Source: Candidatus Gallimonas sp. (lineage in GTDB: Bacteria; Bacillota; Clostridia; Christensenellales; Borkfalkiaceae). Taken from it: 60,695 nucleotides of DNA. Shown one piece after another: positions 2,595 through 42,437 of this stretch. A program made the position numbers and the translations under genes. The DNA is taken from assembly GCA_048370055.1 (NCBI GenBank), contig DBGBVX010000005.1:1-60695 (forward strand). The letters run 5' to 3'. The notes below the pieces were generated by a model. It had not been told where the DNA came from. It saw nothing but the letters and a program-made list of their open reading frames with translations, and made no database searches. Position 1 is the stretch's first letter, and every line of letters begins with the position of its first letter.

Positions 2595-3251
2595 TCACCC
2601 GATCACTTCTTTCATCTTTGCCACGGCTTCGCTGCGCGAGGATACGCCGAGCTTGACGTAGATCGCCGAAATATAGTTGCGCGAAGTGCCGTCCATCAGT
2701 TTGAGCGCGCTTGCGATCTGCTTGTTGGTAAAGCCTTCGTAGATCATGATCGCGATCTCGACTTCGCGGTCGGAAAAGGCGAAGGCGCGTTTGAGCCTGA
2801 TCTCGCGGTCGGTGGAGACCATTTTCGCCGCGTCGGCAATGCGGCGGGCGATCTTGGCGGGCAGGATGGTATCGCCCGCGTAGGCGTTTTTGATGGCGTC
2901 GATGAGCGCCGCGGACGAGGTATCCTTCAAAAGATAGCCGCTCGCGCCGTTGTTGATGGCGTTGAGGATATAGTCGCTGTCGTCAAAGGTCGTTAAAATG
3001 AGCACCTTGACTTCGGGACGGCGGCGCTTGACTTCCTGCGTGGCGATGACCCCGTTCATGTTGGGCATGCGGATATCCATCAGGATGACGTCGGGCTTGC
3101 ACGTTTCGAGCATGCCGAGCGCCTCGAACCCGTCCGCCGCGATGCCGACCACCTCGATCTCGGGGCAGGAAGAGAGGACGCTCTTGATGCCGTCGGCAAG
3201 GATGGACTGATCGTCTGCAAGAAGTACGCGAATTTTTTTAATTGGTTCCAT
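2595..3251 (-). CDS. Response regulator, NarL/LuxR family
   Basis: 218 aa. The receiver domain has DD...D (VILMDIRMP) and K (YLLKD), and there is a C-terminal LuxR HTH (SDREVEIAIMIYEGFTNKQIA). A GAGGT RBS lies inside the end of the kinase gene. Confidence 0.9.
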   Translation of the reverse strand: MEPIKKIRVLLADDQSILADGIKSVLSSCPEIEVVGIAADGFEALGMLETCKPDVILMDIRMPNMNGVIATQEVKRRRPEVKVLILTTFDDSDYILNAINNGASGYLLKDTSSAALIDAIKNAYAGDTILPAKIARRIADAAKMVSTDREIRLKRAFAFSDREVEIAIMIYEGFTNKQIASALKLMDGTSRNYISAIYVKLGVSSRSEAVAKMKEVIG

Positions 3252-9903: not shown

Positions 9904-10165
9904 TTTTCACCTCAAACGCTTTTTTCTGCAAAAAAGCCACCGTATTTTGGATAAAATACGATGACTTTATAACCACCAAAACATACGAACATATGCCCTC
10001 TTTGATAACGCGGAAGGATACCGCGCACGGGGCTACGCTCACCTGATCTCGCCCCGCGGGCACGAAAGGGGATACCCGAACGCCGCTCGCCTCCCCCTTT
10101 CACCTTTGCGGGGTCTCTCTGTGCGCGAAGCATTGCGCCGGACGCGTCCTTTCTTGACGCCTTTT
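9904..10165 (-). promoter_or_regulatory. T-box leader (candidate Ile AUC specifier) with terminator/antiterminator
   Basis: Read on the - strand it shows the AG bay AGAGAG, distal loop GGUGAAA, a GAG-AUC-A specifier candidate (10045-10047) and an F-box-like CGUUA. The T-box core UUGGUGGUU lies within + coordinates 9959-9982. The terminator CATCGTATTTT/AAAATACGGTG plus T-tract is at 9930-9963. An upstream CGTATGTTTT can compete for AAAATACG. The T-box 3' half is non-canonical (UAUAAAG instead of ACCGCG). Confidence 0.7.
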
Positions 10166-10171
10166 TTCTTT

Positions 10172-10200
10172 ATTATAGCGGCTTACCGCGCAAAAGTAAA
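10172..10200 (-). promoter_or_regulatory. Promoter TTTACT-17-TATAAT for the ileS leader
   Basis: -10 TATAAT is at 10172-10177 (rc) and -35 TTTACT at 10195-10200 (rc), with a 17-nt spacer. Confidence 0.5.
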
Positions 10201-10229
10201 GCGTTTTGAAAAGAATTTTTGCGAAGAGG

Positions 10230-10322
10230 CGCCGCGCGTTTCAGGCGTACCGTTCGGCTCAGCCGGACTGCCCTATACGGCGCTCCGCCGCAACGATGTC
10301 AGTTCAAAAAGAAATCTGTGAG
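10230..10322 (+). repeat. Decayed relic of the five-hairpin element (H3/H4 part)
   Basis: ...AGGCGTAC...GATGTCAGTTCAAAAAGAAATCTGTGA compares with the consensus AGGCGTAC...CGCGTCAGTTCGCGGAAAATCTGTGA. The H4 stem is no longer complementary. Confidence 0.55.
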
Positions 10323-10328
10323 AATAGC

Positions 10329-10451: not shown

Positions 10452-12146
10452 TCAGCCCTCTTCGTCCTGCAATGCGTCGTACCCCGTTGCGCCGGTGCGC
10501 ACTTTGACGACGTTTTCCACATCGTATACGAAGATCTTGCCGTCGCCGATGTGTCCGGAATAGAGCACCTTGCGCGCCGCCGCGACGACGTCGTCGACGG
10601 GAACTTCGGATACGACCACTTCCACCTTGACCTTGGGCAGCAGATCCATATCCAATTTGACGCCGCGGTACGTCTCCGTCGCGCCCTTCTGCACGCCGCA
10701 CCCGAATACCGAGGTGACCGTCATGCCCGTGACGCCGAGCTCGGCAAGCGCCGTCTTTAACGGATTGAGCTTGTGTTCGCTCATGACGATGACGACTTTG
10801 CTCATCTTCTTGGACATGGTAGGCACCTTGAGCGCGGGAAGCGTGAGATCTTCAACGGGAGCCGCTGCGGCAGAGCCGTCGAGATCGATGATTTCGGAAG
10901 AGAGCGGCGCCAGCACGAAGTCGGCATATGCAGAGGGAAGTCCGTGTTCGTGGATATCAAGTCCCTCGATCTCCTCCTTCTCGGTGACGCGGACGCCGAT
11001 GGTCTTCTTGAGCAGGAAGAAGAGCCCCGTGATGAGGATCGCCGTCCATGCGCCGACGGCAAGGATGCCGAGCAGCTGAATCCCGAGCTGCAAGCCGTTG
11101 CCCGTATAGAAAAGACCCGTCTGCGTAGAGAAGAGACCGACTGCGATCGTGCCCCAGATACCGTTGACGCCGTGGACGGAGATCGCGCCGACGGGGTCGT
11201 CGATATGCAGCTTTTTATCGATAAATTCGATGGCGAATACGACGAGGATCCCTGCGATCAGACCGATGATAAGGGAACCGAGGTAGTCCACCGCCGAGCA
11301 GCCCGCCGTGATGGCGACGAGCCCCGCAAGGCAGCCGTTGAGCGTCATGGAAAGATCGGACTTGCCGTTCTTGATCCATGTAAGGAAGAGCGCCGCCGCG
11401 CCGCCGACCGCCGCCGCGATCGTGGTATTGCAGAGGATATAGGCAAGTTCCTCCACGCTGCCGGCAGCCGCGCCGTTGAACCCGTACCAACCGAACCACA
11501 GGATGAGCGTGCCGAGGGCGCCGAACGTCATGGAATGCCCGGGAATGGCGCGCACTTTGACGACCTTTCCGTTCGCGTCGCGCTCATACTTGCCGAGGCG
11601 GGGTCCGGCGAAGATCGCCCCGATGCAGGCGGTGATGCCGCCCACCATGTGGATCGCGCAGGACCCTGCAAAGTCAATAAATTTCACTTCCGCGCCCGTC
11701 GAAGCGACCGTGCCCCACACGTTGGTGAGCCAGCCTTCGCCCCAGATCCAATGTGCCTCCACGGGATAGATGATGAGGGAAATGACGAACGAATAGATGC
11801 AGTACGTCGAAAACTTGGTACGTTCGGCGATCGCGCCGGAAAGAATGGTCGCCGCCGTCGCGCAGAACACCAGATTGAAAAAGAAGGTGCTCCAATCGTA
11901 GTTATAGAAATCGGTGAACATCGAGTAGTCGGGCTTCCCGAAGATGCCCGCGACGCTCTCGCCCATCAGGAGCCCTGCGCCCAGCACGGTAAACGCGACC
12001 GTGCCCACACAGAAGTCCACCATGTTCTTCATCAGGATGTTGCCGGTGTTCTTCGCCCGCGTGAAGCCTGCTTCAAGCATTGCAAAGCCGCATTGCATGA
12101 AGAACACGAGGACGGCGCCGACAAGATACCAAATCGACATATCCAT
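10452..12146 (-). CDS. amt: Ammonium transporter fused to a C-terminal P-II (GlnB/GlnK) domain
   Basis: 564 aa from ATG 12146 (GGAGGT RBS 6 nt upstream; the ORF track starts at an upstream TTG). The Amt core has about 11 TM helices (motifs DFAGS, HGVNGIWG). The last ~115 aa form a P-II domain with T-loop GCGVQKGATETYRGV and PKVKVEVVV. Confidence 0.9.
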   Translation of the reverse strand: MDMSIWYLVGAVLVFFMQCGFAMLEAGFTRAKNTGNILMKNMVDFCVGTVAFTVLGAGLLMGESVAGIFGKPDYSMFTDFYNYDWSTFFFNLVFCATAATILSGAIAERTKFSTYCIYSFVISLIIYPVEAHWIWGEGWLTNVWGTVASTGAEVKFIDFAGSCAIHMVGGITACIGAIFAGPRLGKYERDANGKVVKVRAIPGHSMTFGALGTLILWFGWYGFNGAAAGSVEELAYILCNTTIAAAVGGAAALFLTWIKNGKSDLSMTLNGCLAGLVAITAGCSAVDYLGSLIIGLIAGILVVFAIEFIDKKLHIDDPVGAISVHGVNGIWGTIAVGLFSTQTGLFYTGNGLQLGIQLLGILAVGAWTAILITGLFFLLKKTIGVRVTEKEEIEGLDIHEHGLPSAYADFVLAPLSSEIIDLDGSAAAAPVEDLTLPALKVPTMSKKMSKVVIVMSEHKLNPLKTALAELGVTGMTVTSVFGCGVQKGATETYRGVKLDMDLLPKVKVEVVVSEVPVDDVVAAARKVLYSGHIGDGKIFVYDVENVVKVRTGATGYDALQDEEG

Positions 12147-17134: not shown

Positions 17135-17227
17135 CCCTGCTATAAATTTTCCGCAAAAGGCGTCCCTGCGTTATACCTACTTGCTATAAATTACAGATAC
17201 AAGGGGATTTCCCTGCTATAAATTCCC
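17135..17227 (+). repeat. Partial tandem duplication of the left flank/H1 arm of the repeat element
   Basis: CCTGCTATAAATTttCCGCAAAAGGCGTCcCTGCGTTATaCC (17135-17176) is a diverged copy of CCTGCTATAAATTcCCGCAAAAGGCGTCaCTGCGTTATgCC (17212-17252). TGCTATAAATT occurs three times, starting at 17137, 17181 and 17214. Confidence 0.75.
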
Positions 17228-17431
17228 GCAAAAGGCGTCACTGCGTTATGCCTTTTGCGCCCCAATTTGCTGCTTGTGCGGCTTATGGAGAAAGCGTGAG
17301 CCGCCGCGTGCTATACTGTTGCCAAACAGCGGCGGCGAGAGAAAACTCATTGTCAGGCGCTTGCGCCGTGCAATGGGTTGTCTCTCAAAATCACGAAGAT
17401 TTTTCCCGTCAGTTCGGGAAAAATCTTGTGA
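17228..17431 (+). repeat. Five-hairpin intergenic repeat element, copy 2
   Basis: 204 bp. H1 is 17228-17258 and identical to copy 1. H1b is GCTGC/GCGGC. H2 is 17300-17336 (GCCGCCGC/GCGGCGGC). H3 is GAGAGAAAAC/GTTGTCTCTC. H4 is 17392-17430 with compensatory GATTTTTCCCG/CGGGAAAAATC. It ends 5 nt before the TAA of the convergent helicase gene. Confidence 0.9.
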
Positions 17432-17436
17432 ACCCC

Positions 17437-18690
17437 TTATCTGATTATCACAAGTCTCTTCTTCGCCCGCGTGACGGCGGTATACAGCCACTCGCGCCCG
17501 TTCTCGAAATAGCCCGATTCATCAATGACGACGACAAAGTCGTACTCCGAACCCTGCGCCTTGTGGCAGGTGACGGCATAGGCAAACTCGAACCTGCAGA
17601 CGGTATCTTCGCGGCGCACCTTGAAACGGCGGAGCATCTCGCGGTTATCTTCGTGCACCAAGATCCCGTTTGTGAGCAGGCAGGCGCGGTTGCCGTAGCC
17701 GTGGTAGTACTGCCCGCGCACGAAAACGCCCGTATCGAAGGGCAGATCCTCCACGCGGTCGGGCAGAAATTCGGGCTGAAAATCGAGCTGACCGAGCCCG
17801 TCGAGCTGTTCGCGGACGTGATAGCACGTTCCGATGATGCCGTTCACGAGGTGGAAATCCCCCTTTTCGTCGAGCGGCTTGCTCCAATCGTTGAGCGTGC
17901 AGATGATCTTTTCCCCCTCTTCGGGAAGGACCTGCTCGGGCGAAATACCGTGAAAGGCGCGCACTTCGCGGTTGACGAGGGCGCGCGTGCGGTTGGTGCC
18001 GACGATGATCTGATCCGCCTCGCAGAAAAGTTTTTGCCGTGCGGCGACGTCGAGCGAGCGGCGGGGAATGACGGACACGCTGCCGTATTCGCCGTACTGC
18101 GGGCGCTCCCCCGCGCGGATGCGCTCGGCAAGCCGCACGATGGGATTGTCGCGTTCCTGCCGCACGATCTCGCGGAGGGTGACGACGGGCGTCCGCAGCA
18201 GCGTATTGCTGCCGCCGACGGGCGGGAGCTGAGCGGGATCGCCGCAGCACAGGCACTTGACCCCGAACGACAGAAGATCCCTCAAAACGTCGTCGGAGAC
18301 CATGCTCGTCTCGTCGAGCACGATGAGTTTGATCTTGGAATCGATGGACTCCTTTTTGACAAAGCGCAAAAACTGCTCGGAGATGACTTCGCCGTTTTCG
18401 TCTACCTCGATATCCTCCTCGCGAGTATAGATGAGACTGTGCACCGTGGTGGCGGGCACGCCGTTGCGGATAAGCACGGAAGCGGCTTTCCCCGTGGGCG
18501 CGACGAACGCCGCGCTCTCCCCCGCGACGAGCCCGAGCGCGCGCACGATATAATCGACGAGAAAGGTCTTGCCCGTTCCCGCATAGCCGCACAGCACGAA
18601 GATCTGCGTATTCAGATGAAAATACCACGCCTCGATGAGCGCCGCAGCTTCCTGCTGACCGGCGGTGAGCGTGGGCGTATTCCCGTCCAT
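17437..18690 (-). CDS. SF1 RecD/Pif1-like ATP-dependent DNA helicase
   Basis: 417 aa with Walker A GYAGTGKTF, Walker B LIVLDETSM and the C-terminal SF1 motifs AVTCHKAQGSEYD and LYTAVTRAKKRLVII. Confidence 0.8.
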   Translation of the reverse strand: MDGNTPTLTAGQQEAAALIEAWYFHLNTQIFVLCGYAGTGKTFLVDYIVRALGLVAGESAAFVAPTGKAASVLIRNGVPATTVHSLIYTREEDIEVDENGEVISEQFLRFVKKESIDSKIKLIVLDETSMVSDDVLRDLLSFGVKCLCCGDPAQLPPVGGSNTLLRTPVVTLREIVRQERDNPIVRLAERIRAGERPQYGEYGSVSVIPRRSLDVAARQKLFCEADQIIVGTNRTRALVNREVRAFHGISPEQVLPEEGEKIICTLNDWSKPLDEKGDFHLVNGIIGTCYHVREQLDGLGQLDFQPEFLPDRVEDLPFDTGVFVRGQYYHGYGNRACLLTNGILVHEDNREMLRRFKVRREDTVCRFEFAYAVTCHKAQGSEYDFVVVIDESGYFENGREWLYTAVTRAKKRLVIIR

Positions 18691-26053: not shown

Positions 26054-26830
26054 ATGCAGAACGAACAGGACAGCTTTAAGGGCATTTTCAGCGGAAACGC
26101 CCTCAAACTTATCGCGTGCGTTTTTATGCTCGTCGACCACACGGGCGCCATCCTCTTTCCGGAGATTGCGGCGCTGCGCGCGGCGGGTAGGCTCGCCATG
26201 CCGCTGTTCGCCTTCACCTTCGCCGAAGGATGTTTTTACACCAAGAAACGGCTCCTCCACTTTTTCCTCGTTTTCGGCATCGGGCTCGTGACGAGCGCGG
26301 GATTTTCCCTCGCCGAGGGAGCGCCGCGCGGCGACATCATGATCTCCTTTACGATGGCGAGCCTTGTGATATGGTCGCTCGACTCCCTCAAACGCGGCGT
26401 CTTTCAGCGGAGCGCCAAGCGGACCGCCCTCTCCGCGGCAGCCCTGCTTGCCTCGCTCGCCCTCGCGGTATGGGTATGCTGTTTTTCGCCCATGCGCGTG
26501 GATTACGGGCTCGCGGGCGTATTGCTCCCCGTGACGGTAAGGCTTTTGGACTTCCGCTCCTACGGCGGGAAAGGGCTGATCGCGGAGCTCTACCACCCCG
26601 CGACGACCATTCTCCTGTTCACCGTATGCCTGCTCGTCATCGCCATCCCGCGGGGGAGCCTTCAGCTCTTTTCGCTCCTTTCCCTGCCCTTTCTCCTGCT
26701 GTACAACGGCAGGCGCGGAAAATATCGGCTCAAATACTTCTTCTATGCCTTTTATCCCCTGCACCTCGCCCTTTTGGCGGGGATATTCCTCGCCCTGCAC
26801 CCCGAATCGATCGCGGCTATTTTTTCATGA
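26054..26830 (+). CDS. TraX family membrane protein
   Basis: 258 aa, polytopic. The N-terminal LKLIACVFMLVDHTG motif is typical of the TraX family. Confidence 0.75.
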   Translation: MQNEQDSFKGIFSGNALKLIACVFMLVDHTGAILFPEIAALRAAGRLAMPLFAFTFAEGCFYTKKRLLHFFLVFGIGLVTSAGFSLAEGAPRGDIMISFTMASLVIWSLDSLKRGVFQRSAKRTALSAAALLASLALAVWVCCFSPMRVDYGLAGVLLPVTVRLLDFRSYGGKGLIAELYHPATTILLFTVCLLVIAIPRGSLQLFSLLSLPFLLLYNGRRGKYRLKYFFYAFYPLHLALLAGIFLALHPESIAAIFS

Positions 26831-26862: not shown

Positions 26863-26961
26863 GCCACATTTTAAGGCGGAAAATTGTTTTTAGTTATGTC
26901 CGCGAGGAAGGTTGCCTTCCGCTGCGGTACTCAATTTGCGCACATCCATTACAAATTCGTT

Positions 26962-27281
26962 GCAAAAGGCGTCACTGCGTTATGCCTTTTGCGCCCCTGA
27001 TTGTTGCATAAGCAACTTTTGAGGAAAGAGTGAATGCGGCGCGCTATTATGTTGCGATTGCGCCGCAGAGAGGTGAGCGCGTACGTTATGCCGACAGCCC
27101 CCTGTGGGGCTTCGGCGTATGCGCGAACTGAGAAATTGCCATATCAAGGGCAATTTCGTGACCGAAACCGCGCTTTCCATCGGCGCGGTTGAGACAAACC
27201 CGCGGTTAGCCGTAGGCGTACCCGCGGGTTTTCTCTCAAACTCACGAAGATTTTCCGCGTCAGTTCGCGGAAAATCTGTGA
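26962..27281 (+). repeat. Five-hairpin intergenic repeat element, copy 3, carrying a 123-bp nested insertion
   Basis: 320 bp. H1 is 26962-26992, H1b is GTTGC/GCAAC, H2 is 27035-27067 (TGCGGCGC/GCGCCGCA) and H4 is 27243-27280. Relative to copy 4, an extra segment 27073-27195 lies inside the H3 stem. The element ends 9 nt before the TAA of the convergent ferritin-like gene. Confidence 0.9.
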
Positions 27282-27290
27282 ATTGCGGTT

Positions 27291-28538
27291 TTACGCTCCT
27301 TTTACGCGGCCGACGTCGGTATTGTCCCGCTTTCTGTCGGCGAGCGCGCGGACAGGATGCTCCTTCCCCATGAGGCGGTAGTCCTGCCCGAGGCGCTCGA
27401 TGGCTTTTTCGATGACGGTGTGCGTGCCCGCCGCCTCCACGCTGCCGTGGACGCGCGCGTTATAGCCGAAGTAACGGAAGGAATCGGGGAGCTTATCCAC
27501 ATCCTCGAATCCCTCCTCCACGCCCGTAAGGCGCACGCTTTTGAGCACCTCGCGGATATACTCCTTCTGCGGACGGAATTTCAGAAGCTCGGGGAACTCG
27601 CCGCCCTCGGGCAGCACCTGCTGCCATACCTTTCCGCCGTATACGCGCAGAAGTTCCGCCGCCTCGTGCAGGTGCGAGACCTCCTCCAAAAAGTGCATCT
27701 CCCAAATCTTTTTAATGCGCGCGTCCGTCTCGTCCTCGTAGCAGGAATAATACAGGTAACACTCGGTATACTCGTTCATGAGGAGATTTTCCCACTCGCT
27801 CATGCAGGGATCTTTGAGGCAGCCGTATCCCGTGACGTGCTGTTCCTCGATCATGGCGATCTCGTTGAAGAGCTTTCTCCCGAGCGGCGAGGCGTACAGG
27901 TTGCCGACGTTCATATAAAAGTTCATCGTCTGCTGTTCCGCCGCCGTGATGATGTTCACGTTGAGCTTTGTTCTGAGGTCGTTGAGATAGCCGTTCATAT
28001 AAAAGCGCACGTCGTCGAAGGGGTGGCGGTATTCCGACACGGTGGGCCGCCCGGGCATGATCTCGGTATACTCGCCCACGAGGCGCGCGGGATCGCCGCC
28101 CTTTTCCAATTCCATGAGATCGGCATAGCGGTAAAGGTGATCGAAGTCCTCCAAAAGCGCGAAGTCGAGCTGCTTTTTGACGTAGCCGTTCTTTTCGCTG
28201 AGCGCGAGGTTGGCGGTGAGATCGACCGCGAGCTGTTCATAACCGATGGTGTGTTCCAAAATGCTCTCGTCGGCGGGTTTGAGCGAAGCCACGCGCTTTT
28301 GCTGAAGCTGTTCGCCGCGGCGCATGTACGCAAGGCGGCGGCGCACGTCGTTGTTGGGGCACATGCGCGACATGGCGTGCGTGAGCCGCACCGACTCGAA
28401 CTCGGTGCCCGACATTAAGATGATGCGCAGACGGGTATAGGGATCCACCGCGTTCTTATCGTATGCCCTGACGAGCACTTTCTTCCATTCCGTAAAGACC
28501 TTGTCCGCCTTCTGCGGTTTGAGTTCAAAGGGATTCAT
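27291..28538 (-). CDS. Ferritin-like (di-iron carboxylate) domain protein, function unknown
   Basis: 415 aa from ATG 28538 (AAGGAGGAG RBS). Repeated E/DxxH motifs (LEDFDH, EEQH, EEVSH) suggest a di-metal four-helix bundle. I cannot name a family. Confidence 0.6.
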   Translation of the reverse strand: MNPFELKPQKADKVFTEWKKVLVRAYDKNAVDPYTRLRIILMSGTEFESVRLTHAMSRMCPNNDVRRRLAYMRRGEQLQQKRVASLKPADESILEHTIGYEQLAVDLTANLALSEKNGYVKKQLDFALLEDFDHLYRYADLMELEKGGDPARLVGEYTEIMPGRPTVSEYRHPFDDVRFYMNGYLNDLRTKLNVNIITAAEQQTMNFYMNVGNLYASPLGRKLFNEIAMIEEQHVTGYGCLKDPCMSEWENLLMNEYTECYLYYSCYEDETDARIKKIWEMHFLEEVSHLHEAAELLRVYGGKVWQQVLPEGGEFPELLKFRPQKEYIREVLKSVRLTGVEEGFEDVDKLPDSFRYFGYNARVHGSVEAAGTHTVIEKAIERLGQDYRLMGKEHPVRALADRKRDNTDVGRVKGA

Positions 28539-28605
28539 TTTCTCCTCCTTTCCGCTTTGAATTTTACGGGAATTATTGCCTGCCTGAAAAGGTTTATTCA
28601 TTTGA

Positions 28606-37504: not shown

Positions 37505-38767
37505 TTATTCGTGCGGCGCCGCGGGAAGCGGCGCCTCGTCGGGCGAAGCGTCCGCCTTTTTGACTTCATAAATGCCCTGTACGGCGGCGTAACTGTCGCG
37601 GCGGAGCAGTTTTTTCTGCACGAGGGCGCCCGTCGCGTCGTACACGAGCAGATAGCTCTCGCTTTTCAGCCCCTCTTTTTCGGCGCGCACCGTCCTGTCC
37701 TCCTCGCCCTCCCGAAGCTCCGCCTCGGGCGGCGGGATGCGCGCGAGAACGCGGCTCTCCGTTTTATACCGCATGCCGTCCGGCTTGCCGTATACCTCGA
37801 ACGTGACCTTCCCGCCCGACGTCCGCCCCAAAAGATACACGGGGAACGGGTAGGGATTGGAGAATTTGAGATCGCTCCAGCGGGAGACCATGGCGTCGAG
37901 CGAGGGCTTTACATAGCCCACCGAGAGCGAGTGCGGGCGGCTCTCGGTGACGGCGAGCCCCGCCTCGAGCGCCGCGTTCATGAGCGTTGTGGAAGCCTGA
38001 CACACGCCCCCGCCCGTCCCCGAGACGTACTCCCCGCCCGAGATGATGGGCGCCTCCAAAAACCCGTTTTCCGCCGTCCGCAGCCCCACGGCGGCGTTGA
38101 ACGAGAAGCTCTCCCCGGGGAGCAGTACGCTGCCCGCGACGCGCTCGCAGGCGAGGGCGATGTTGTGCGCCCGCGCCGTTTTGGACGCGTCGAAATAAGT
38201 AGAGAAGGAGGAGAGCTTCTGCGTGCGCTCTTTGAGCTGCGCCCGCGTGACGGATGGCTGCCAGATGTGCGTGACAAGCGACGCCTGCGCCTCCCCCGCG
38301 CCGAGCGCGCGGAGCGCCGCGGCGAGCGAGGCGGCGCGATCGCAGTACACCCCTGCGCGCTCCTTCGCGTAGGAAAATCCGAATCGGGTAAAGGAGAGCG
38401 CGGCGTCCTCCGGCGCGCGCATGCCCCTCTCGCACAGCCGCGCGATCTCCTCTTCCGCACCCACCCATACGCGGCGCACGGTCGCCTCCAAAATATCCCC
38501 CTTCCGCGCCTTCCGCACGAGCATGGGCACGTCGTCCGAATACTCGATCGCGGGCATGGTATCGCCGAAAGGCGTGTGGAGGGTGAAGGGAACGCGCTCC
38601 GCGGCAAGTTTTTTGCGCACCGTCGCGATCGCCTCGCTGTAGGGCATGCCCCCGACCTCGACCCCCGAGACGACGACGTCTGCCCTGACGCACCCCGCGC
38701 GCCCGAGAAAGAAAAACGCGCTCCCCGCGAGGAGGAGCGCCAAAATGCAGGCAAAAACTTTTTTCAT
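37505..38767 (-). CDS. VanW family protein
   Basis: 420 aa with an N-terminal TM/signal anchor and the VanW core motif GGGVCQASTTLMNAAL. Its ATG overlaps the PHP gene stop (ATGA). Confidence 0.8.
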   Translation of the reverse strand: MKKVFACILALLLAGSAFFFLGRAGCVRADVVVSGVEVGGMPYSEAIATVRKKLAAERVPFTLHTPFGDTMPAIEYSDDVPMLVRKARKGDILEATVRRVWVGAEEEIARLCERGMRAPEDAALSFTRFGFSYAKERAGVYCDRAASLAAALRALGAGEAQASLVTHIWQPSVTRAQLKERTQKLSSFSTYFDASKTARAHNIALACERVAGSVLLPGESFSFNAAVGLRTAENGFLEAPIISGGEYVSGTGGGVCQASTTLMNAALEAGLAVTESRPHSLSVGYVKPSLDAMVSRWSDLKFSNPYPFPVYLLGRTSGGKVTFEVYGKPDGMRYKTESRVLARIPPPEAELREGEEDRTVRAEKEGLKSESYLLVYDATGALVQKKLLRRDSYAAVQGIYEVKKADASPDEAPLPAAPHE

Positions 38768-39606
38768 TCGCTCTCCCGAAGGCGGGCGAAGATCTCCAAA
38801 AGGCGCGCGTCGGGCTCGAACGGAGGCTGACCGATGGCGCGGTTGCGCATGCCCTCGGCATGAAAATCCGAACCGCCCGTAAGGTACAGCCCCTTCCTCT
38901 CTCCGTACGCGCGGAAGTACGCCCGCTCGGTATCAGTATGGTCGGAGTGCGTGTATTCTATCCCGTCCAATCCGTGCAAAACAAGCGCGTCCATGAGCTT
39001 TTCGCGCGCTTCGAAGTCAAGCGGGATGCGCCCCGGGTGCGCAAGGGAGGCGATGCCGCCCGTCTGATGGATGACGTCGATCGCGTCGAAGGGCGTGGGG
39101 CGCATCTTATCGGAATAGCAGGGCTTGCCCGCGCTGAAATATTCCAAGTACAGCTCCCCTTTTTTGCGCCCGAGACGGCTCGCGAACGCCCCCACGACAT
39201 GCATGGTATGCAGGGGCGCCTCCTTTTTGAGGTGGAGTTTTTCCGCGTCGTCCAACGTGAGGGAGAGCCCGAACACCGCGTTCGCCCGCGCGATCATCTC
39301 TTCGGCGCGCACGAGGGCGCCCTCTTTGCGGCGCGCAAGGAACGCCCGATACGACGCGTCGGGGCGGCAGCCGTACCCGAGAACGTGCACCTTCGCCGCG
39401 CCCGCATAGGAAGAGACCTCCCACCCCGCGATGAACTGCAATCCCTGCGCCGCGGCGGCGGCGCGCTTTTCGCCGAGTCCCTCGAGGCTGTCGTGATCGG
39501 TCATGGAGAGAAGCTCCACGCCCGCGGCTTTCACGCGCGCGGCGATCTCGGCGGGCGTATACGCTCCGTCCGAATAGATCGTATGGATATGCAGATCTGC
39601 CCTCAT
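38764..39606 (-). CDS. PHP domain phosphoesterase
   Basis: 280 aa from ATG 39606, which overlaps the recF stop. Motifs are ADLHIHTIYSDG and MTDHDS. Confidence 0.8.
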   Translation of the reverse strand: MRADLHIHTIYSDGAYTPAEIAARVKAAGVELLSMTDHDSLEGLGEKRAAAAAQGLQFIAGWEVSSYAGAAKVHVLGYGCRPDASYRAFLARRKEGALVRAEEMIARANAVFGLSLTLDDAEKLHLKKEAPLHTMHVVGAFASRLGRKKGELYLEYFSAGKPCYSDKMRPTPFDAIDVIHQTGGIASLAHPGRIPLDFEAREKLMDALVLHGLDGIEYTHSDHTDTERAYFRAYGERKGLYLTGGSDFHAEGMRNRAIGQPPFEPDARLLEIFARLRESE

Positions 39607-40688
39607 GAAACGATCTTCCCCTCCTTGATGCGTATTTTGTTGCACTCCGCGCCGTACAATACGCGCTCGGCGTGCGTGCAGGTGAGGATACATTGGATAT
39701 CCCGCACCCGTTCCAATAGTTTTTTGCGGCGCGGGAGATCGAGCTCGCTCATCACGTCGTCGAGGATGAGCACGGGCGCTTCGCCCGCGAGCGTGCGGAA
39801 GATCTCCGTTTCGGCAAGTTTTAAGGAGAGCGCCGCCGTGCGCGCCTGCCCCTGCGAACAGTACCCGCGCGCGTCCGCGCCATCGATAGAAATTTTGATG
39901 TCGTCGCGGTGCGGCCCCACGGACGTGAACCCCAGCCGCAGGTCGCGCTCCCGCGCCGCGGAAAACTGCTTTATGAGTTTTTCCGCGATCTCCCCTTCGT
40001 CGTCGGGATAGCTGCCGTCCATCTCGAGGGCAAGCTCCTCCGCGCCGTCGGTGAGGTAGGCGTGCGCGTCGCGCGCGAGCGGCGAAAGTTCCCGCAGATA
40101 CCGCCGCCTGTGGCGGATGATGCGCGCCGCGTACACGGCAAGCTGCTCATCCCAGACGGGGAGCGTTTCGAGAATGAGCGGGACTTCCCGCCCCTTGAGA
40201 AGGTTGTTGCGCTGATCGAGGATGCGCTGATAGCGCGCCAATGCCGTGCAGTACTCGCGCGAAGTCTGCGAAATGGAGAGGTTGAGAAAACGCCTGCGCT
40301 CGTCGGGACCGTCCTGGATGAGCCTTAATTCCCCGGGCGAGAAAAAGACGCTGTTCATGTTGCCCACAAAGTCCGCCGCCCGCGTGAGACGGTTGCCGTT
40401 GAGGTAGAGTTCCCGCTTGTTTTCGAAGATCGCCGCCTCCAGCGTGATCCCGCCGAAACGCGTATGCGCCTCCGCCGAGATGCGCGCGCAGCTCTCGCCG
40501 CGGCGGATGAGCTGACGGTCGTGGCGGATGCGGAGGCTTGCGCCCGTGCAAAGGTAAAACACCGCCTCGGCGCAGTTCGTCTTGCCCTGCGCGTTGCGGC
40601 CCGTGAGCACGTTGAGCCCCTCCGAAAAAGAGAAGGTCTCCGCCTCATAATTTCTGAAATTGACGAGCGTTAATTTTTTGATGACCAT
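39603..40688 (-). CDS. recF: DNA replication/repair protein RecF
   Basis: 361 aa with Walker A GRNAQGKTN, the SMC-like signature SQGQARTAALSLKLAE and Walker B VLILDDVMSELD. Confidence 0.93.
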   Translation of the reverse strand: MVIKKLTLVNFRNYEAETFSFSEGLNVLTGRNAQGKTNCAEAVFYLCTGASLRIRHDRQLIRRGESCARISAEAHTRFGGITLEAAIFENKRELYLNGNRLTRAADFVGNMNSVFFSPGELRLIQDGPDERRRFLNLSISQTSREYCTALARYQRILDQRNNLLKGREVPLILETLPVWDEQLAVYAARIIRHRRRYLRELSPLARDAHAYLTDGAEELALEMDGSYPDDEGEIAEKLIKQFSAARERDLRLGFTSVGPHRDDIKISIDGADARGYCSQGQARTAALSLKLAETEIFRTLAGEAPVLILDDVMSELDLPRRKKLLERVRDIQCILTCTHAERVLYGAECNKIRIKEGKIVS

Positions 40689-40741
40689 GCGGGATTTTTT
40701 TGAAAAACGCTTTCTTTTTGGCGCATTTTGTACTATAATGA

Positions 40742-40755
40742 GAGTGTATACACTC
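40742..40755. promoter_or_regulatory. Perfect 14-bp palindrome GAGTGTATACACTC in the recF-dnaA spacer
   Basis: It lies 2 nt downstream of the best -10 candidate (TATAAT, 40734-40739) for dnaA. The binding partner is unknown. Confidence 0.4.
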
Positions 40756-40817
40756 CCAACCGACAGATAATATTATACCAAAACCGCACGAAAAGGAAAA
40801 GCGTTTGCGAGGGAAAT

Positions 40818-42161
40818 ATGACGGCACAATTCGACTTTTTATGGAATAAGATCCGCGAGCGGGCAAAGGCGCTCATCAACCCCATCTCGTACAGCACGTT
40901 CATCGAAAACCTTACGCCCGTGGACGTTGTGGGCAAGAAGATCGCCCTCAGGGCGGAGAGCGAGCTCGCCGCCCGCACCATCACCAAAAACCACCTCGAA
41001 AAACTGCGCGAGGCGGTCGTCTCCGCCGACGTGGGACTTTCGGACGTGATCATCGTGGTGGAAGGCAGCGAGGAGTTCACCCTCACCGAATCGCCCGACG
41101 ACGCGGTGGAGGCGGATTCCGTTGTTCTGGACAAACGCTATACCTTCGATTCCTACGTGGTGGGCAGCTCCAACAAATTCGTGTTCGCCGCGGCGAAATC
41201 CGTTGCGGAGAACCCCGGCGAAAACTTTAATCCCCTCTACATCTACGGCGGCACGGGGCTCGGCAAGACGCACCTGATGCAGGCAATCGCCAACGACATC
41301 GCGCAGAAAAAACCCTCGCTCAAAGTGATCTACACGACGAGCGAAAAGTTCCTCAACGAGTATGTGGACAGCATGTATGCCAAAAAGGGCTCGGGACGGG
41401 ACAACGAGACGCGTTTCCGCAACCGCTACCGCGGCGTGGACGTGCTGCTCATCGACGATATCCAGTTCTGGGCGGGAAAATACGGCGTGCAGGAGGCGTT
41501 TTTCCACGCCTTCAACGAGCTGTTTTCCCAGCACAAACAGATCGTTATTTCCTCCGACTGCCCCGCCAAGGAGCTGACGACGCTGGAAGAGCGGCTGCGC
41601 ACCCGCTTCGAGGGCGGGCTCATTGCCGATATCCAGCCCCCGGACGCGGAGACGAAGATCGCGATTCTGAAGCGCAAAGCGCTCGAAAAGAAATACGTTG
41701 TGCCCGACGACGTGCTCGCCTTCCTCGTGCGCGGATCGGATAACAACGTGCGCACGCTCGAAGGGCGGCTGAACACCGTCATCTTTGCGAGCAAACTGCA
41801 CGAAGAGCCCATTTCGCTCAAGCTCGCCGCGGAGGCGCTGCAGGAGGCGATCAATGTGGACGAGCAGGAGGAAGTCACGCCCGACGCCATCATCCGCGCG
41901 ACCTGTACCTATTTCGGCATCGGCAAGAACGACCTCGTGGGCAAAAACAAGCGGCAGGAGATCGTGCGCGCGCGGCAGATCTGCATCTACCTCATGTGCG
42001 ATATGCTCGCCCTTCCCCTCGTGACGGTGGGCAAACTGATGGGCGGGCGCGACCACTCCACCATCATCTACGCGCGCGACAAGATCGTGGAACTCATGCG
42101 CGTGAACGACCGCGTGGCGAAAGACGTGAACGACGTAAAGAGCGCGGTACTCAAACAGTAA
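40818..42161 (+). CDS. dnaA: Chromosomal replication initiator protein DnaA
   Basis: 447 aa from ATG 40818, with Walker A GGTGLGKTHL, Walker B LLIDDIQF, sensor motifs and the C-terminal DNA-binding signature GKLMGGRDHSTIIYARDKI. Confidence 0.97.
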   Translation: MTAQFDFLWNKIRERAKALINPISYSTFIENLTPVDVVGKKIALRAESELAARTITKNHLEKLREAVVSADVGLSDVIIVVEGSEEFTLTESPDDAVEADSVVLDKRYTFDSYVVGSSNKFVFAAAKSVAENPGENFNPLYIYGGTGLGKTHLMQAIANDIAQKKPSLKVIYTTSEKFLNEYVDSMYAKKGSGRDNETRFRNRYRGVDVLLIDDIQFWAGKYGVQEAFFHAFNELFSQHKQIVISSDCPAKELTTLEERLRTRFEGGLIADIQPPDAETKIAILKRKALEKKYVVPDDVLAFLVRGSDNNVRTLEGRLNTVIFASKLHEEPISLKLAAEALQEAINVDEQEEVTPDAIIRATCTYFGIGKNDLVGKNKRQEIVRARQICIYLMCDMLALPLVTVGKLMGGRDHSTIIYARDKIVELMRVNDRVAKDVNDVKSAVLKQ

Positions 42162-42165
42162 GTGT

Positions 42166-42363
42166 TCACAGATTTTCCGCGAACTGACGCGGAAAATCTT
42201 CGTGATTTTGAGAGACAACCCGCGGGTACGCCTACGGCTAACCGCGTGTTTTCTCTCTGCGGCGCAATCGCAACATAATAGCGCGCCGCATTCACTCTTT
42301 CACCGTAAGCCGCGTAAGCGGCAAATTGTGGTGCAAAAGGCATAACGCAGTGACGCCTTTTGC
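42166..42363 (-). repeat. Five-hairpin intergenic repeat element, copy 4 (inverted orientation)
   Basis: 198 bp. Its reverse complement aligns end to end with copies 1-3. The H4 end is at 42167-42204 and starts 4 nt after the dnaA TAA. H2 is identical to copy 3, H1b is GCCGC/GCGGC, and H1 is at 42333-42363. Confidence 0.9.
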
Positions 42364-42414
42364 AACCATATTACAGCATTATAATAACACTGCCAAAAAC
42401 CAAATTATCACGAG

Positions 42415-42437
42415 AAAAATCCCTTTACGGGATTTTT
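42415..42437 (+). terminator. AT-rich hairpin AAAAATCCC-tttac-GGGATTTTT just upstream of mnmG
   Basis: The 9-bp stem ends in a T-run, 14 nt before ATG 42451. It could terminate dnaA/repeat read-through. The function is uncertain. Confidence 0.4.

Follow-up and report, generated by a model that had tools for sequence, protein, structure and literature searches.

In a 60,695-nucleotide (nt) stretch of Candidatus Gallimonas sp. DNA (assembly GCA_048370055.1, contig DBGBVX010000005.1; hereafter the window), a Clostridia genome stretch with a G+C content of 59%, four full copies are present of an intergenic repeat of about 205 nt made up of five hairpins. The window is nearest to metagenome-assembled genomes of Candidatus Gallimonas from chicken gut, sharing up to 93% identity with GTDB representatives, none of which matches it identically. 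The repeat belongs to a mosaic family specific to the genus, and the reading that we tentatively favour is that it acts as a portable promoter coupled to a hairpin module placed at gene boundaries, with both strands being used. A complete unit spans ~225 nt, with an extended -10 box followed by the hairpins H5-H4-H3-H2-H1. It is polar, H1 as the outer terminus being set flush with the boundary of an open reading frame (ORF) and the promoter end facing into the spacer, in which it is often met back-to-back by another unit. The family looks like an undescribed relative of known bacterial intergenic repeats, much larger and more elaborate than these. The strand on which H1 is read first, which was the one used in the preliminary description of the window (where H1 was called hairpin 4), is denoted S, and its reverse complement, on which the order is H5 to H1, is denoted P.

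At all four copies in the window a gene reads into H1, as seen from the sequence and the list of ORFs. Copy c1 (2389-2591, + strand, scoring 197 bits against the covariance model) is separated by 4 nt (2591-2594), counted to its TCAC, from the TGA (2595-2597) of a response regulator gene (2595-3251, - strand). Copy c2 (17223-17432, + strand, 178 bits) lies 5 nt from the TAA (17437-17439) of a helicase gene with AAA_30 and UvrD_C domains (17437-18690, - strand), and copy c3 (26957-27282, + strand, 137 bits) lies 9 nt from the TAA (27291-27293) of an ORF at 27291-28601 (- strand). The fourth copy, c4 (42165-42368, P on the - strand, 165 bits with the covariance model and 227 bits with nhmmer), follows dnaA, with 4 nt from the stop codon (TAA, 42159-42161, + strand) to the TCAC of c4 (42162-42165); read on the + strand the unit starts 3 nt past the stop. 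The gaps of 4, 5, 9 and 4 nt given previously are thus exact, as is the statement that the gene enters the same hairpin end each time; they are counted from the stop codon to TCAC, and taking GTTCAC as the terminus shortens each by 2 nt. If each copy were placed at random within its own spacer and in random orientation, all four would fall within 10 nt with P ~4e-6. Pfam supports the naming of the response regulator, the helicase, DnaA and MnmG, while the ORF beside c3, which had been called ferritin-like, has no Pfam hit and its label is unconfirmed. Copies c1 to c3 share one orientation with a relic at 17145-17178 (+ strand), a degenerate H5 with its own TGCTATAAAT box standing in tandem upstream of c2, and c4 is in the opposite orientation. 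The inversion of c4 that had been read as a flip of orientation across dnaA is real, but it involves a single copy and coincides with the direction of the adjacent gene.

Searching a collection of species-representative genomes with a 19-mer from the loop of H5, the most conserved module, returned 86 stretches. The 80 of these that were listed come from about 20 metagenome-assembled genomes (MAGs) named Gallimonas or uncultured Clostridia, with one 'uncultured bacterium'. By this search the repeat is known only from chicken-gut Clostridia, namely Candidatus Gallimonas and its close relatives; viral contigs gave no match to the 19-mer, and nothing relevant was found in the literature on Gallimonas repeats. 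In the window and the related loci (designated below by L numbers) a profile hidden Markov model finds 162 matches and the covariance model 163. At least 26 units are present in the sampled blocks of one genome, where the copies are strongly diverged, with a median identity of 61% and a maximum of 93%. Neither the window nor 126 kb of related loci (16 loci) contains a match to Rfam 15 at the gathering threshold, and for c4 E-values of up to 10 brought up only noise.

The position of the repeat relative to genes was assessed for the 125 best model matches in the 86 related loci, 111 of which have an H1 end and enough flanking sequence. In 59 of the 111 (~53%, class A) a gene reads in and its stop codon lies 0-8 nt, in a few cases 12-15 nt, ahead of the H1 end. 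In 33 (~30%, class B) a gene reads away and its start codon comes 1-42 nt beyond the H1 end, the interval usually containing GGAGG. These counts carry an error of a few copies, as some shadow ORFs were mis-called by the gene caller (for example at the TraX gene, 26054-26830). The remaining 19 copies fall in neither class, although several differ from the two arrangements only in a wider gap, of 60-130 nt, for instance before rpsL and recF. The adjacency to stop codons noted in the window is therefore non-random and extends to the family. The median distance to a gene is 5 nt on the H1 side versus 285 nt on the promoter side, and H1 is the nearer side in 81 of 86 copies from the related genomes (binomial p ~1e-18). 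Relative to the adjacent gene the unit is anti-parallel in 59 copies and parallel in 33. Neighbouring units stand back-to-back with H1 pointing outwards, 15 pairs being divergent, two tandem and none convergent, so that a typical spacer between co-directional genes reads stop codon, H1 to H5, promoter, then promoter, H5 to H1, ribosome-binding site.

The genes behind class B copies are ileS, gyrA, gyrB, uvrB, ligA, clpX, hslU, def, ychF, pckA, ilvD, cysE and purF; the identity of ileS was confirmed and the other names were read from the translations. That these are diverse housekeeping genes points to a generic expression module rather than a riboswitch. A cis-regulatory leader of a single pathway can be dismissed on the same grounds, as only ~30% of the copies are upstream of a gene and the downstream genes are unrelated.

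All five hairpins can be traced in c4. H1, the outer terminal hairpin (42166-42205), consists of TCAC, AGATTTTCCGCG, the loop AACTGA, CGCGGAAAATCT, a TC bulge and GTGA, and TTTT follows directly at 42206-42209; TTTTGAGAG comes after H1 in the window copies. H2 (42210-42257), defined from covariation and folding, is a long helix of three segments in which GAGAGA...TCTCTC closes the inner stem. Covariation defines the other three: H3 (42258-42290) is formed by TGCGGCGC and GCGCCGCA around a loop with a conserved GCAACAnnATAGC, H4 (42309-42322) by GCCGC-GTAA-GCGGC, with a GNRA-type tetraloop when read on the + strand, and H5 (42333-42363) by GCAAAAGGC and GCCTTTTGC around the loop ATAACGCAGTGAC. 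In the covariance-model alignment all 58 pairs of the five helices change on both sides. Pairing is found in 95.1% of the cells, compared with 40-55% when the partner is slid by 1-3 columns, and the covariation score of 0.503 (0.145 in shuffles) was reached in none of 500 shuffles. H1 contributes 17 covarying pairs, and its stem occurs as AGATTTTCCGCG, ACTTTTTCTTTCA or GAAATTCTTTTCG across the family. While the stems are free to vary, the loops and junctions are conserved, notably AACTGA in H1, GCAACAnnATAGC in H3 and ATAACGCAGTGAC in H5. Both strands of c4 fold far better than shuffled sequences, P at -94.1 kcal/mol (z -6.1) and S at -90.0 kcal/mol (z -7.2). A small conserved ORF within the unit was considered and rejected: the candidate peptides lie over covarying stems and, by inspection, none is conserved.

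Some copies carry a further, nested module that is rich in hairpins, ~100-130 nt long and with the core TCACGAAATTGCC...GGCAATTTC. In c3 it takes up ~120 nt at roughly 27075-27195. It is also present in L001, L009, L012, L022, L054, L071 and L076, so that two positions and both orientations are represented; in copies other than c3 it is found between H5 and H4 in the opposite orientation. It looks like an insertion element of its own.

A promoter-like box is conserved at the H5 end. On the P strand, the sequences that precede H5, of which 90 are distinct, share the consensus TGnTAWAAAWWCGTT, immediately followed by GCAAAAGG. In 61 of these 90 a box matching TATAAT in at least five of six positions ends 3-8 nt before H5, compared with 2.6% at random positions, and 44 of 89 show the TG extension. 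Conservation does not extend to a -35 element in the regions upstream of H5, as would be expected for extended -10 promoters. In c4 a promoter scan gives the site TTGGCA-17-TAATAT at 42368-42396 (- strand), its -10 box (42368-42373) preceding H5 by 4 nt; from the spacing of the box, transcription would be predicted to start at the base of H5. As this extended -10 is on the strand opposite to the one considered previously, the unit probably has a transcript of its own, directed toward the gene. A second promoter-like site, GTGAAA-17-TATTAT, ends at 42275 (- strand) in the H3 loop of c4. Here (42266-42282), and in the equivalent loops of other copies, the loop of H3 together with its 3' strand (TGCTATAcTGTTGCGAAAcag) is similar to the promoter box and the beginning of H5 (TGCTATAAAATGGTTGCAAAAGG). 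This likeness suggests either an old duplication within the unit or a further promoter inside it.

Further motifs are seen on the promoter side of the unit. The centre of some divergent pairs (L019:929-952, L024) is occupied by a small palindrome, ATGATAGC-TTTTGGAA-GCTAAAAT, in which two -10 boxes point away from each other at a spacing of 8 nt. In many units, for example in L004, L044, L070 and L063, a repeated motif made up of AATCACTCGCGCAAG and then a short hairpin (GGAGGCTGCGCCTCC, CAGGGTTTCCCTG or CAAAATCGCATTTTG) recurs upstream of the -10 box, and the palindrome CTTGCGCAAG is conserved.

The preliminary description had proposed a terminator or stabiliser in the 3' untranslated region (3'-UTR), which would be transcribed only with the upstream gene and hence as S, or else an element oriented by replication. 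The former is consistent with the position of all four window copies and of 59 of the 111 family copies a few nt past a stop, with the H4 GNRA loop being on the S strand, and with H1 itself, which in the window is a stem of 12-16 bp followed by TTTT that a simple scan rates as terminator-like. The terminator likeness is not general, however, since 33 of 111 copies lack a gene reading in and instead set this H1 end against a Shine-Dalgarno sequence and start codon, which a 3'-UTR module cannot explain. The U-tract, although present in the window copies, is not conserved in the family either: many copies carry GGGGAAGAG in its place, and a T-run of at least three after H1 on S is found in 27 of 56 copies after a stop versus 21 of 32 before a start. 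Being common in both contexts, it is not tied to a gene reading in. The -10 box, moreover, is on the other strand, and the orientation follows the ORF boundary in two opposite ways. As regards replication, the 59:33 split in orientation relative to the adjacent gene makes a strict replichore rule unlikely, and neither a sign change in GC skew nor a cluster of DnaA boxes is found near dnaA in the window. Taken as a whole this explanation appears very improbable. Insertion targeted to the region just past stop codons, which had also been suggested, may account for the adjacency, but neither a target-site duplication nor a target motif was found.

The covariation is almost purely Watson-Crick and so does not single out one of the two strands as the one that folds. 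Of the pair cells, 4550 are Watson-Crick, 147 are G-U on P (68 of them from one invariant pair) and 31 are G-U on S. With one invariant and one terminal pair set aside, G-U makes up only ~1.2% and 0.7% of the cells, respectively. The counts of G-U versus A-C favour P in H2 (54:10) and H3 (8:1), bearing in mind that the alignment was fitted on P and so leans toward it; the invariant G-U in H5 and the lower folding energy of P in 62 of 82 copies also favour P. H4, on the other hand, favours S, since among 82 copies 53 have a GNRA tetraloop (mostly GUGA) when read on S and only 4 when read on P. The pair counts and folding energies are thus in conflict with the GNRA loops. From these counts the scarcity of G-U fits selection on both strands, or on DNA hairpins.

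Were P alone to matter, the units might be multi-copy genes for a small RNA running from the promoter through a 5' H5 to a 3' H1, which would act in trans or bind or titrate a protein, adjacency to genes being secondary. The -10 box at a fixed distance from a start predicted at the base of H5 would fit such genes, as would the covarying stems with their conserved loops and junctions, the excess of G-U on P in H2 and H3, the invariant G-U in H5, the greater stability of P in most copies and the separate hairpin that follows some of them. Most copies, however, have no U-tract at H1 on P, and 30% would give a transcript that continues directly into an ORF. It is S that carries the GNRA loop of H4, G-U pairs, counted on an alignment fitted on P, are much scarcer than is typical of RNAs, and there is no relative in Rfam. 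It would therefore seem doubtful that the units are primarily small-RNA genes.

The main rival to the module reading, which we regard as somewhat unlikely, is a non-autonomous mobile DNA element, either REPIN/RAYT-like, derived from IS200/IS605 or of the foldback type resembling miniature inverted-repeat transposable elements (MITEs), the hairpins of which would serve mobilisation as single-stranded DNA. It would insert preferentially at ORF ends, with the promoter incidental or selfish. Several properties are in keeping with this: the number of copies in a single genome, at least 26 in its sampled blocks; the mosaic structure with nested modules in both orientations; the occurrence of relics and internally deleted copies; and covariation so nearly pure in Watson-Crick pairs that it would suit DNA hairpins. 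The back-to-back pairs resemble the alternating repetitive extragenic palindromes (REPs) of bacterial interspersed mosaic elements (BIMEs) (PMC2817692). Orthologous sites are found both filled and empty, window positions 9904-9929 being empty where L064 is filled and L049 being empty where L009 is filled; in L064 the unit separates the ribosome-binding site of ileS from a conserved region further upstream, and in the window only 26 nt lie between these two. An insertion also appears to have occurred inside the 3' tail of an ORF, as a VanW-like ORF ends at the TGA of the H1 loop, with the tail ...KKVTNFFLN*, in L008:1913-2160, L035:210-424 and L067:5825-6031. Its orthologue in the window (37508-38767) has no repeat and a longer, different tail of 19 residues.

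Against mobility, the copies within a genome are old, none being near-identical (93% at most, with the median of 61%). Matches between the flank and the far side of the unit average 6.95 of 9 compared with 6.88 in controls, giving no signal of a target-site duplication. The 102 distinct flanks contain no fixed target motif, with only a G at -1 (68%) and an A/T-rich stretch, and the commonest 4-mer occurs in 7 of them. No transposase was found among the ~35 of ~55 called window ORFs that were scanned, and no matches in viral contigs. H1 and H5 are dissimilar, the H1 sequences differ between the arms of the one pair inspected (L018), and the conserved loops and junctions together with a -10 box exceed what a transposase substrate needs. 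Among the features tested, a signature of a known transposition mechanism is absent. The derivation from IS200/IS605-type elements put forward earlier is likewise not borne out, as H1 is unlike H5, no target tetranucleotide is present and the scanned window ORFs include no transposase.

Two other routes of copying were also set aside. Truncation at the 5' end, as in retroelements, was suggested by nhmmer matches that stop near model position 176, but most of these copies hold the 100-130-nt insert between H5 and H4; the promoter would, in addition, lie outside the predicted transcript. A terminal direct repeat, in the form of half an H1 upstream of the promoter, is present in L009, L021, L059 and L064, a handful of ~95 copies, and this rarity suggests the relic of a tandem neighbour rather than a duplication made by insertion.

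Among known systems the closest analogues are REP/BIME, BOX/ERIC and the promoter-carrying Correia elements, and the repeat lacks the defining features of REPs, of IS200/IS605 derivatives and of MITEs. The role of REPs has reportedly been linked to stop-codon proximity, by Liang, Rudd and Deutscher in 2015. As with the REPs and BIMEs of Enterobacteria and Pseudomonas, many extragenic palindromic copies occur in transcribed spacers, often just past stops; they form mosaic clusters in alternating orientation (here the 15 divergent, 0 convergent and 2 tandem pairs), and compensatory changes preserve the hairpins. REPs are single GC-rich palindromes of 20-40 bp with a GTAG or CGTC tag at one end (PMC3733652). 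They occur in clusters of alternating orientation (PMC2817692), flank the gene for a RAYT (Y1/HUH) transposase (PMC2817692, PMC3333891) and function in protection of mRNA 3' ends, in termination and in modulating translation upstream (PMC2817692, PMC3333891). The Gallimonas unit in contrast is ~205-225 nt long, with five hairpins, conserved loops and a -10 box of its own, and its H1 is flanked by GTTCAC...CGTGA without a GTAG or CGTC tag. The host lineage, moreover, is Clostridia, and no RAYT is present among the window ORFs scanned.

Like BOX and ERIC, the Gallimonas repeat is modular, intergenic and close to gene ends or starts, but it has no sequence relationship with either. BOX of Streptococcus pneumoniae and ERIC/IRU of Enterobacteria are modular intergenic repeats of 100-200 nt or more near gene starts and ends. 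Their RNA is predicted to fold stably, and they are co-transcribed with neighbouring genes, the expression of which they can affect. To our knowledge neither shows a strict polarity with one end at the ORF boundary, and we know of no report of a conserved promoter at the other end. ERIC is cited in PMC3575422, and the Correia elements of Neisseria and 'putative mobile promoters' are described there as repeats with outward promoters that land directly upstream of unrelated genes (citing PMC3024310). Most Correia elements are nearly identical to one another, and they possess terminal inverted repeats as well as a TA duplication, whereas the Gallimonas repeat has neither terminal inverted repeats nor a target-site duplication, and its copies share ~61% identity and a covarying structure.

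The hairpin-rich ends and the lack of both terminal inverted repeats and target-site duplications are shared with IS200/IS605 elements and with PATEs and REPINs. Unlike in PATEs, the hairpins at the two ends bear no relation to each other, H1 having a variable stem and the loop AACTGA, and H5 an invariant GCAAAAGGC stem and a loop of 13 nt. IS200/IS605 elements differ in having a fixed tetra- or pentanucleotide target and TnpA, which was not seen in the scanned ORFs, and the 59:33 split relative to the adjacent gene suggests that their single orientation rule is lacking too. MITEs differ in that their ends are alike and a target site is duplicated. The H1 stem followed by TTTT in the window resembles an intrinsic (Rho-independent) terminator, but in about half of the family the U-tract is missing, irrespective of context, and another 160 nt of conserved structure follows. 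The attC sites of integrons stand in cassette arrays, one directly after each ORF, with the R''/R' cores RYYYAAC/GTTRRRY and an integrase. They were rejected as an explanation because the repeat is flanked by core genes (dnaA, ileS, gyrA/B), its copies are scattered in either orientation and GTTCAC departs from GTTRRRY.

The promoter and boundary module that we favour would work differently on its two sides. For a gene reading in, H1 would be the first structure of the 3'-UTR, within the footprint of the terminating ribosome, and would act as a 3'-end hairpin, that is as a barrier to exonucleases or an attenuator, and in a terminator-like manner where a U-tract follows; the unit's own promoter would fire a convergent structured RNA. 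For a gene reading away, the unit would supply a promoter and a structured leader of ~205 nt ending in H1 at the ribosome-binding site. We infer that copies spread, probably by recombination or gene conversion among themselves or else through a mobilising enzyme. Such a module accounts for both classes of context, for the outward geometry of the pairs and for the diversity of the genes; it also accounts for covariation that is confined to Watson-Crick pairs, which selection for folding on both strands would explain.

Several points weigh against this interpretation. Both transcripts, like the promoter, are predicted. In more than half of the copies the promoter is aimed into the 3' end of a gene, where the benefit is not obvious, and the next gene's own promoter must still lie on the far side of a copy placed after a stop. 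The 0-8 nt spacing from H1 to the stop has no mechanistic explanation, and the model gives H2 to H5 no role. As the copies within a genome are old, recent mobility and selection in situ are without direct support.

A more ambitious version of the module, which we consider unlikely, is that of a dual-strand functional RNA, a standard boundary cassette that carries a promoter at dozens of core operons and is selected to fold on both strands, in which a dedicated protein would bind the invariant loops of H5, H3 and H1 to give a genus-wide post-transcriptional regulon. In one orientation it would provide a 3'-end hairpin and a convergent antisense RNA, and in the other a promoter and a 5' leader. 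The near absence of G-U pairs and the distance to stops and starts, matching a ribosome footprint, would then be designed features.

The spacer between dnaA and mnmG contains a further structure beyond c4. A hairpin like H1, TCACGAG-AAAAATCCC-TTTAC-GGGATTTTT (42408-42437, + strand), lies 13 nt before the mnmG ATG (42451) and is preceded by TATAAT at 42380-42385; judging from this arrangement it is possibly a reduced partner unit of c4 facing the other way. The same hairpin with a U-run is found in the spacers of L008 and L038, and analogous ones in L010 and L059. None of the six species compared lacks the unit altogether at the site downstream of dnaA, which holds full but strongly differing units in four, an internally deleted one in L035 and H5 alone in L059, while c4 shares 92% identity with a class B copy that another species carries at a different locus. 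Together these suggest turnover by conversion or re-insertion. No Shine-Dalgarno sequence is recognisable before mnmG. The gene order at 39606-42161 is unusual in that recF (- strand) is divergent from dnaA (+ strand), which is followed by mnmG and not by dnaN.

A relic not noted previously, the 3' half of an H1 (TCAGTTCAAAAAGAAATCTGTGAGAA), lies at 10299-10325 (+ strand), and the orthologous position in L064 holds a mini unit of H5 and H1. Next to the empty site at ileS, ~300 nt upstream of this gene (9930-10250, - strand) are conserved with L064 and L013 and terminate in a U-run hairpin. In Firmicutes a T-box usually precedes ileS, but neither a T-box nor any other Rfam family was matched upstream of ileS at this site. 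The ORF at 10455-12146 encodes an ammonium transporter with a C-terminal P-II (GlnB-like) domain (NCBIfam, residues 5-403 and 448-557).

In practical terms, the repeats mark operon boundaries in Gallimonas, where they will confuse annotation, small-RNA prediction and the assembly of MAGs. With five helices, 58 pairs and more than 100 diverged copies they also provide a rich covariation set, which can be used to ask whether selection maintains such repeats as RNA, as DNA hairpins or as both. If the interpretation as a promoter and boundary module is true, a sizeable share of core operons, including those of dnaA, gyrA/B, ileS, uvrB, ligA and clpX, among others, would be bounded or driven by one reusable module, and this would be a clear natural case of the reuse of promoters and untranslated regions in an uncultured gut genus.

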